DNA of 32,000 bases from Elusimicrobia bacterium GWD2_63_28 (GCA_001799895.1 MGUI01000051.1:1-32000); one strand, 5' to 3'. Shown: positions 16,788-16,863, numbered from the stretch's first letter. A program made the numbers and translations. Notes: generated from the letters alone by a model not told the origin.

Positions 16788-16824
16788 AGGATCGGGCGCG
16801 GGCGCCGCCCCGCCGTCGGGGAAG

Positions 16825-16853
16825 TTGCTCTGCGCGCCATATATGCGTATAAT
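16825..16853 (+). promoter_or_regulatory. promoter for second arsR; possible leaderless transcript
   Basis: TTGCTC (16825-16830), 17 nt, perfect TATAAT (16848-16853); predicted start ~16860-16861 coincides with the ATG. Confidence 0.6.
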
Positions 16854-16863
16854 AGCATATATG
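16838..16863. promoter_or_regulatory. candidate ArsR operator between divergent hgcA and arsR2
   Basis: CATATATGC-GTATAATA-GCATATATG: perfect 9 bp inverted repeat with an 8 nt spacer containing the TATAAT. Confidence 0.65.

Follow-up and report, generated by a model that had tools for sequence, protein, structure and literature searches.

The palindrome between the divergent hgcA and arsR genes is, judged from sequence, probably the operator of the adjacent ArsR/SmtB-family repressor built onto a bidirectional promoter, such that arsenic would co-induce the ars genes and hgcAB. In the window, which is the entire 32,000-nucleotide stretch of DNA that was analyzed, this element reads as a perfect 9-8-9 inverted repeat, CATATATGC-GTATAATA-GCATATATG, at positions 16838-16863, in agreement with the original prediction. 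It is placed between hgcA on the minus strand (ATG at 16787) and arsR on the plus strand, which are separated by a gap of 73 bp (positions 16788-16863 comprise this gap plus the arsR ATG). The conserved core of the left arm is the half-site ATATGC (16841-16846) and that of the right arm is GCATAT (16855-16860). The -10 hexamer TATAAT, previously proposed to sit inside the operator spacer, is located there at 16848-16853. The G+C content of the palindrome is 27%, relative to 63% for the window. We propose that one repressor dimer occupies both arms of this putative operator.

The flanking genes were assigned by profile matches. The minus-strand gene hgcA (15795-16787), which encodes the corrinoid protein of mercury methylation, scores 412.5 bits against NF040863 (cut-off 275), and the cap-helix motif INVWCAAGK is present in its translation. 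The ferredoxin gene hgcB (15505-15798, minus strand; NF040864, 125.3 bits, cut-off 99) shares 4 nt with the end of hgcA. On the plus strand, arsR (16861-17247), named arsR2 in the original prediction, encodes a 128-residue protein (NF033788, 77 bits, cut-off 55; PF01022, 37.1 bits, cut-off 22) and is followed by a HesB/IscA-like gene (17279-17587, PF01521), arsC (17596-18015, a family-level match only, under the equivalog cut-off), acr3 (18015-19073; TIGR00832, 451.6 bits, cut-off 282.8) and a usually syntenic PhnD-like gene (19133-20041). The HesB/IscA-like Fe-S scaffold protein, which has a Cys/His-rich tail (CGDGCSCGH), is an operon member in nearly all related loci. The hgcAB genes sit within an arsenic island: a second operon, located upstream at 11955-15499 and converging on hgcB, is an organoarsenical-resistance set composed of arsR1, arsP (PF03773), a thioredoxin-like gene (PF13192), a DGC gene (PF08859), an ArsF-family gene (NF040494) and arsG (NF040495, 220.5 bits, cut-off 200). 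The stop codons of arsG and hgcB are 5 bp apart, and no terminator is seen between them.

Conservation of the site was computed from loci gathered by protein-anchored scans of genome and metagenome contigs. These scans returned 94 loci, and the conservation set comprises 47 non-redundant Elusimicrobia loci (ArsR identity of 63-95%) aligned on the repeat. Across the 47 loci, a 20-bp core, ATATGC-r-TATAAT-w-GCATAT, is nearly invariant at approximately 2 bits per position; besides this core, the -35 element (TTGAC) is conserved, and the remaining flanks carry near-zero information. The exact palindrome pattern occurs once in the window and in none of 100 shuffles, and no further operator copies are found there (the best other match, at 24545, is intragenic and has two mismatches). 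Perfect 9-bp inverted repeats with spacers of up to 12 bp are not rare in the window, however (15 hits at approximately eight sites relative to 0-7 hits in block shuffles), and function is therefore argued from conservation rather than from the repeat itself. This frequency is the one point that would favor a chance AT-rich palindrome around a -10 element, or an RNA hairpin acting as a terminator or attenuator. Such a reading is effectively refuted by the conservation pattern, as the arms are invariant in the 47 loci and across phyla, whereas the spacer and flanks vary. In addition, if transcription starts at the ATG triplets of the arms, neither transcript holds both arms; the predicted hgcA leader (16842 to 16740, minus strand) folds no better than its shuffles (z = 0.48), and an Rfam search of 16600-17000 returned no match.

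The arms also extend beyond the Elusimicrobia. In regulators from other phyla that are 41-48% identical and share the ESQYNVSR recognition helix, TATGC-N8-GCATA arms are kept and the spacer is constantly 8 bp with a variable sequence. Examples include Moduliflexus, WOR-3, Syntrophomonadaceae, Saccharibacteria and Caldisericum-like contigs (at least five other phyla). In each case there is overlap between the site and the promoter of the regulator-encoding operon, including two loci (L032 and L033) in which the regulator gene is operon-internal. These scans were anchored on the recognition-helix peptide, and the result thus denotes consistency rather than an independent test. The same data bear on whether a different regulator binds the palindrome, for example the other ArsR of the island, the gene for which lies 5 kb away, or a global binder of AT-rich palindromes. 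This assignment is highly improbable, as the motif accompanies the clade of the adjacent ArsR in at least five other phyla and is invariably located at the promoter of the encoding operon. As a control, the other ArsR in the window (arsR1) differs in its recognition helix (DDISTVSKHL versus ESQYNVSRHL), and the promoter of its gene contains a separate conserved repeat.

Within the Elusimicrobia, a second copy of the operator lies before an extra ArsP-type permease gene in several loci (L011:4025, L012:4035, L044:753, L047:233 and L058:1507), in each case within TTGACA-17-TAAAAT. These second copies imply a regulon with more than one promoter. The extra permease gene has a normal GGAGG Shine-Dalgarno sequence and is thus leadered, unlike arsR.

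On the plus strand, the -10 hexamer of the arsR operon promoter (TATAAT, 16848-16853) is preceded, at a distance of 17 nt, by a weak -35 element, TTGCTC (16825-16830), that matches the consensus at three of six positions. Because of this weak match, a consensus promoter scan of the window did not call the arsR promoter, and its assignment rests on the relatives, most of which have TTGACA here and thereby carry a perfect TTGACA-17-TATAAT in the same place. The -35 element is degenerate throughout the clade of the window, and clades with longer spacers retain TTGACA. In the compact loci L003, L004, L007, L010 and L037, the arsR -35 region (TTGCAT or TTGCGT) falls within hgcA codons 4-6 (approximately 4960-4975 in L003).

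The right arm ends in the arsR ATG itself (16861-16863), which is separated from TATAAT by 7 nt, a feature that the original prediction did not notice. This spacing of 7 nt (9 nt in a few loci) recurs in approximately 44 of 48 loci. Since a gap of 7-9 nt leaves no room for a Shine-Dalgarno sequence, the arsR-hesB-arsC-acr3 mRNA is predicted to be leaderless. In three loci the canonical arsR start is farther away; the arm ATG is in frame with that start in two of them (L017 and L067), and in the third (L014) it opens an 8-codon ORF whose TGA overlaps the canonical start. The presence of an ATG in each arm, with the arms 18 nt apart, results in two in-frame ATG codons per strand, which would encode MRIIAYM on the plus strand (16843-16863) and MLLYAYM on the minus strand (16858-16838). 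Several database entries annotate the regulator as a 134-residue protein, a start that lies upstream of the predicted transcription start. A similar geometry is seen for arsR1, which also appears leaderless: TTGACA (11997-12002) is followed after 17 nt by CAGAAT (12020-12025) and, 7 nt later, by an ATG at 12033. Its own repeat is formed by TCTATT (12003-12008) and AATAGA (12023-12028), and the arrangement TTGACA-tCTATTTGGCnATTTGGcAAAATAG-...-ATG is kept in approximately 12 related loci. The ORF listing places the arsR1 start too early, at a TTG at 11955.

On the minus strand, the predicted hgcAB promoter is a correctly registered, extended -10 element, TGCTATTAT (16849-16857), in which the TG occupies 16857 to 16856 and the hexamer TATTAT occupies 16854 to 16849. 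This element overlaps the plus-strand -10, and the two together give a symmetrical TATAATA (16848-16854) that matches TATWATA. No recognizable -35 element is found for this minus-strand hgcA promoter, and its TG belongs to the conserved arm and is thus not independent evidence. Support for its placement comes from seven compact relatives (L002, L003, L004, L007, L010, L037 and L026), in which the left-arm ATG on the minus strand is the first codon of the hgcA reading frame. The next in-frame hgcA ATG in the compact loci is codon 47-49, within the conserved domain, and in four of the seven there is no other in-frame start before it; L004, L010 and L037 also have an in-frame GTG at position 10 and/or 19. 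The divergent start codons in these loci are only 20 bp apart (18 bp in L026), and the gap from the -10 to the start on the hgcA side is 6-8 nt. With 18-20 bp between start codons, the hgcA promoter must either overlap the operator or lie beyond it, in which case the operator would act as a roadblock. The earlier suggestion that the hgcA promoter probably overlaps the palindrome is thereby strengthened, as no separate promoter fits in these seven relatives. In the window itself, the approximately 50 bp that separate the palindrome from hgcA (16788-16837) are 80% G+C and contain no A/T-rich or -10-like hexamer, as originally described.

A more restricted role for the palindrome has to be weighed at this point, namely that it only autoregulates arsR-hesB-arsC-acr3 and that hgcAB was inserted nearby and is perhaps constitutive, expressed from an unrecognized promoter that the repressor does not touch. 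The core is equally and fully conserved in approximately 15 loci that lack hgcAB; it is therefore foremost an ars operator-promoter to which hgcAB is an add-on, and conservation by itself is uninformative on hgcAB. The patchy distribution of hgcAB on the ArsR tree, which resembles that of mobile cargo, the lack of a -35 element in the minus-strand promoter and the frequent description of hgcAB as not induced by Hg are likewise in keeping with this restricted role. It is nevertheless doubtful, though a possibility to be taken seriously, given the 18-20 bp spacing in the seven relatives, which forces the promoter to overlap the operator or lie beyond it, and the G+C-rich, -10-free stretch between the palindrome and hgcA in the window. 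Two further observations, described below, also argue against it: at arsR-proximal sites the spacer base correlates without exception with hgcA adjacency, and in one locus an hgcA gene distant from arsR retains its own operator copy. The original prediction that one ArsR dimer controls both the ars operon and hgcAB is thus favored computationally by arms that track the regulator clade, by the compact starts and by this separate copy, and it is qualified in that the site is primarily an ars operator.

The spacer base in question is that equivalent to 16854. All 30 hgcA-adjacent sites have an A at this position, and 29 of the 30 read TATAATA. In contrast, none of approximately 16 arsR-proximal sites without hgcA has this A; these sites instead read TATAATT or variants thereof (AATTAT on the minus strand). 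A Fisher test of 29 versus 15 loci gives p = 4e-12 with kinship ignored, and the association is confounded by shared ancestry. At least 4-7 changes in hgcAB presence are required on the ArsR tree in 100 of 100 bootstrap replicates, which indicates that the association does not reflect a single inherited event. As a strict marker of hgcA, the base was set aside due to one secondary site (L047:233) that is of the A type and lacks hgcA; the rule holds at all arsR-proximal sites.

In locus L044, where 1 kb separates hgcA from arsR, hgcA is provided with an operator copy of its own that carries a minus-strand TGCTACTAT, and the arsR-proximal site is of the T type. The copy beside hgcA (L044:654-682) is bracketed on the plus strand by a perfect TTGACA and TATAAT (16-nt spacer) and is followed by a 13-codon ORF. 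This site may be a relic of an arsR promoter that stayed in place upon insertion of the permease gene together with a duplicated promoter. The hgcA leader predicted for this locus includes a perfect 8-bp hairpin, ACGGCTAA/TTAGCCGT.

Other minus-strand promoter candidates were also considered. The weak TTTCAT-17-TATATG noted in the original prediction is present in the window (TTTCAT at 16866 to 16861 and TATATG at 16843 to 16838, 17 nt apart), but it does not hold as a general promoter: the conserved final T is missing from its -10 hexamer, and in the seven compact relatives the hgcA start codon lies within that hexamer. A sigma-54 reading of the minus-strand TGGCGCGCAGAGCAAC was rejected because, on visual inspection, the GG and GC elements are incorrectly spaced, and because other loci do not retain the sequence.

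In the window, the left arm contains a mirror-image ATG on the minus strand (16840 to 16838) that opens an 18-codon ORF, MARRATSPTAGRRPRPIL (16784-16840, minus strand), the TGA of which overlaps the hgcA ATG (ATGA). No Shine-Dalgarno sequence precedes the hgcA ATG in the window. An ATGA overlap is also found in L006, L035 and L001, with ORFs that differ in length or sequence, and the arm ATG of L036 shares the hgcA reading frame. The 18-codon ORF would fit leaderless entry followed by termination-reinitiation into hgcA, a reading that is suggestive only, as the independent cases are few. The short ORF was discarded as a conserved coupling device, since the ATGA overlap occurs in four loci, an in-frame arm ATG occurs in four, and other clades have unrelated outcomes. 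Several hgcA-bearing loci, most clearly the L019 clade, have no left-arm ATG and instead have a leader of approximately 57 nt with a GGAGA Shine-Dalgarno sequence, which indicates that leaderless hgcA is not general.

[quoted passage not shown] Its metal-binding box reads ELCVCEL, in which Cys38, Val39, Cys40 and Glu41 are invariant in 32 homologues and Glu replaces the Asp of ELCV(C/G)D. Relative to the Cys32/Cys34/Cys37 triad of the R773 type, two counterparts are present (Cys38 and Cys40), and the third position is Val43. Two cysteines suffice in R773 (10.1101/2022.10.17.512643). Other conserved cysteines of the protein are Cys61, Cys99, Cys100, Cys122 and Cys128. The C-terminal extension (residues 85-128, window 17115-17247) is itself conserved, with the pattern PCC...DIARLxxRLxLR...GVCVVGxNC; solved ArsR/SmtB structures match only to approximately residue 95, and the extension is absent from them. 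Vicinal C-terminal cysteines are a feature of ArsR types that sense other arsenic species, and Cys99, Cys100, Cys122 and Cys128 could be a second sensing site. Based on the invariant ELCVCE box and the presence of arsC and acr3 in the operon, As(III) is a plausible effector; this reasoning says nothing about Hg(II) or MeHg. Homologues of this ArsR (up to 95% identity) come almost entirely from MAGs of Elusimicrobia/Elusimicrobiales, many of them from aquifer sediment, and the source lineage is uncultured.

Sequence, conservation, geometry and co-occurrence with the regulator were all computed here, and from them we infer ArsR binding, the two transcription starts, leaderless translation and the effector. 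In the proposed mechanism, the 8-bp spacer between the half-sites ATATGC and GCATAT accommodates the two overlapping -10 elements (plus strand, TATAAT; minus strand, TGCTATTAT). Plus-strand transcription from TTGCTC-17-TATAAT would begin with the A of the arsR ATG (16861) or with the nucleotide immediately preceding it. Minus-strand transcription would start at approximately 16842-16840, at the mirror ATG of the left arm, and run into hgcAB. One dimer bound to both arms would cover both -10 elements and both starts and would block RNA polymerase in both directions. Binding of As(III) to the cysteines of the ELCVCE box, possibly together with the C-terminal cysteines, would release the repressor, and the arsenic-resistance genes and hgcAB would then be induced together. 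If hgcAB indeed belongs to this regulon, a segment of 26 bp in the compact loci would accommodate the operator together with two -10 elements and two start codons, which would represent an unusually compact, bidirectional, repressor-controlled promoter that is apparently leaderless both ways.

Metal-responsive control of divergent genes has precedents. In smtB/smtA of Synechococcus and in merR/merT, one metal-sensing dimer located between divergent genes controls both directions. The smtA/smtB region spans approximately 100 bp and contains several repeats, and MerR belongs to another family and activates by distorting DNA. To our knowledge, neither system packs both start codons into the operator.

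Classical ArsR/SmtB operators are imperfect 12-2-12 inverted repeats located in the operator-promoter region or over the start site, and the corresponding repressors contain an ELCV(C/G)D box (PMC5658604). The site described here resembles these operators in that the regulator has a metal box in the helix-turn-helix region, the inverted repeat overlaps its own core promoter and derepression is the expected response. In contrast, its architecture has a 6-8-6 core (9-8-9 in the window) with the -10 in the spacer, compared with the classical 12-2-12 and the 6-2-6 of Thermus; the 12-2-12 arrangement describes typical members of the family and is not a strict requirement. The start codon of the regulator within the operator is also a feature of the window that is unlike the classical operators. 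Bidirectional promoters with a symmetrical -10, TATWATA, have been described (Warman et al. 2021, as cited in PMC12095673). These promoters resemble the region studied here in having overlapping -10 elements on the two strands, with divergent starts predicted here to be approximately 19-21 bp apart, and differ from it in that the symmetrical -10 of the window lies inside the palindromic operator of a repressor and, at least in the compact relatives, the start codons lie in the arms.

The closest functional comparison is with Pseudodesulfovibrio mercurii ND132, in which an ArsR-like regulator controls hgcAB in an arsenic-responsive manner (Gionfriddo et al., 10.1101/2022.10.17.512643, which cites Goni-Urriza 2020 for the ArsR2-hgcAB system). 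In both organisms an ArsR/SmtB-family gene lies beside hgcAB and control of hgcAB is linked to arsenic, putatively so in the window. The ND132 arsR2 gene, however, is upstream of hgcAB on the same strand, is co-transcribed with it and has no other ars genes adjacent, whereas the arsR of the window is divergent and heads an arsC-acr3 operon. Compared by description, ArsR2 of ND132 has an unusual four-Cys motif (Cys47, Cys49, Cys86 and Cys88), whereas the ArsR of the window has the classical ELCVC box. The shared name arsR2 is coincidental. Furthermore, no operator or promoter is defined for ND132, whereas a specific candidate operator can be named in the window. Levels of the hgcA transcript in ND132 do not predict methylation rates.

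Since ArsR control of hgcAB is known from ND132 and co-localization of hgcAB with ars genes has also been published, the concept is not new. The novel elements are the operator named here, a promoter architecture that is both divergent and symmetrical, the placement of start codons within the operator arms and the Elusimicrobia setting. In the literature searched, no hgcA promoter or operator is defined, and nothing directly relevant was found on leaderless genes in Elusimicrobia. How hgcAB expression is controlled and what HgcAB is really for are both questions of mercury biogeochemistry, and ND132 provides the sole experimental link between hgcAB and an ArsR thus far. The present locus supplies, from another phylum, a deeply conserved candidate operator, ATATGC-N8-GCATAT, and an explicit model of an hgcAB promoter. 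The model makes a single-base prediction at A16854, and short DNA fragments would allow assays in E. coli or in vitro, with no need for cultured Elusimicrobia. If the model is correct, arsenite would co-induce the methylation genes in Elusimicrobia of aquifers and sediments, which bears on hgcA transcripts at sites that contain both As and Hg.

The gene content of the loci may also relate to the native function of HgcAB. In 28 loci, hgcAB flanks the arsR promoter on one side and arsM is absent. In approximately 17 loci, arsM (NF008823, 276.6 bits, cut-off 263) directly follows arsR and hgcAB is absent (L009, L011, L012, L015, L018, L022, L025, L041-L043, L046, L050, L058, L062, L066 and L070). 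These counts describe the locus only, and arsM could lie elsewhere in the hgcAB-bearing genomes. Locus L044 carries both hgcAB and arsM, and in L067 arsM is accompanied by a broken hgcB and by an hgcA remnant of which just the final 47 codons are left (L067:1912-2343). One speculative and rather unlikely interpretation of this distribution is that hgcAB is both a true As(III)-inducible member of the ArsR regulon and a cargo of the island alternative to arsM, which would point to a native role in the chemistry of arsenic or organoarsenicals and not of mercury. A different arrangement is found in a MAG of another lineage (L033:56-2803; also L080), in which arsR and acr3 are succeeded by hgcA and hgcB, all in one orientation, so that the pair resembles part of an ars operon. 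In L033, a TATGC-N8-GCATA site lies ahead of the following operon (arsP-DGC-arsR-thioredoxin-like).
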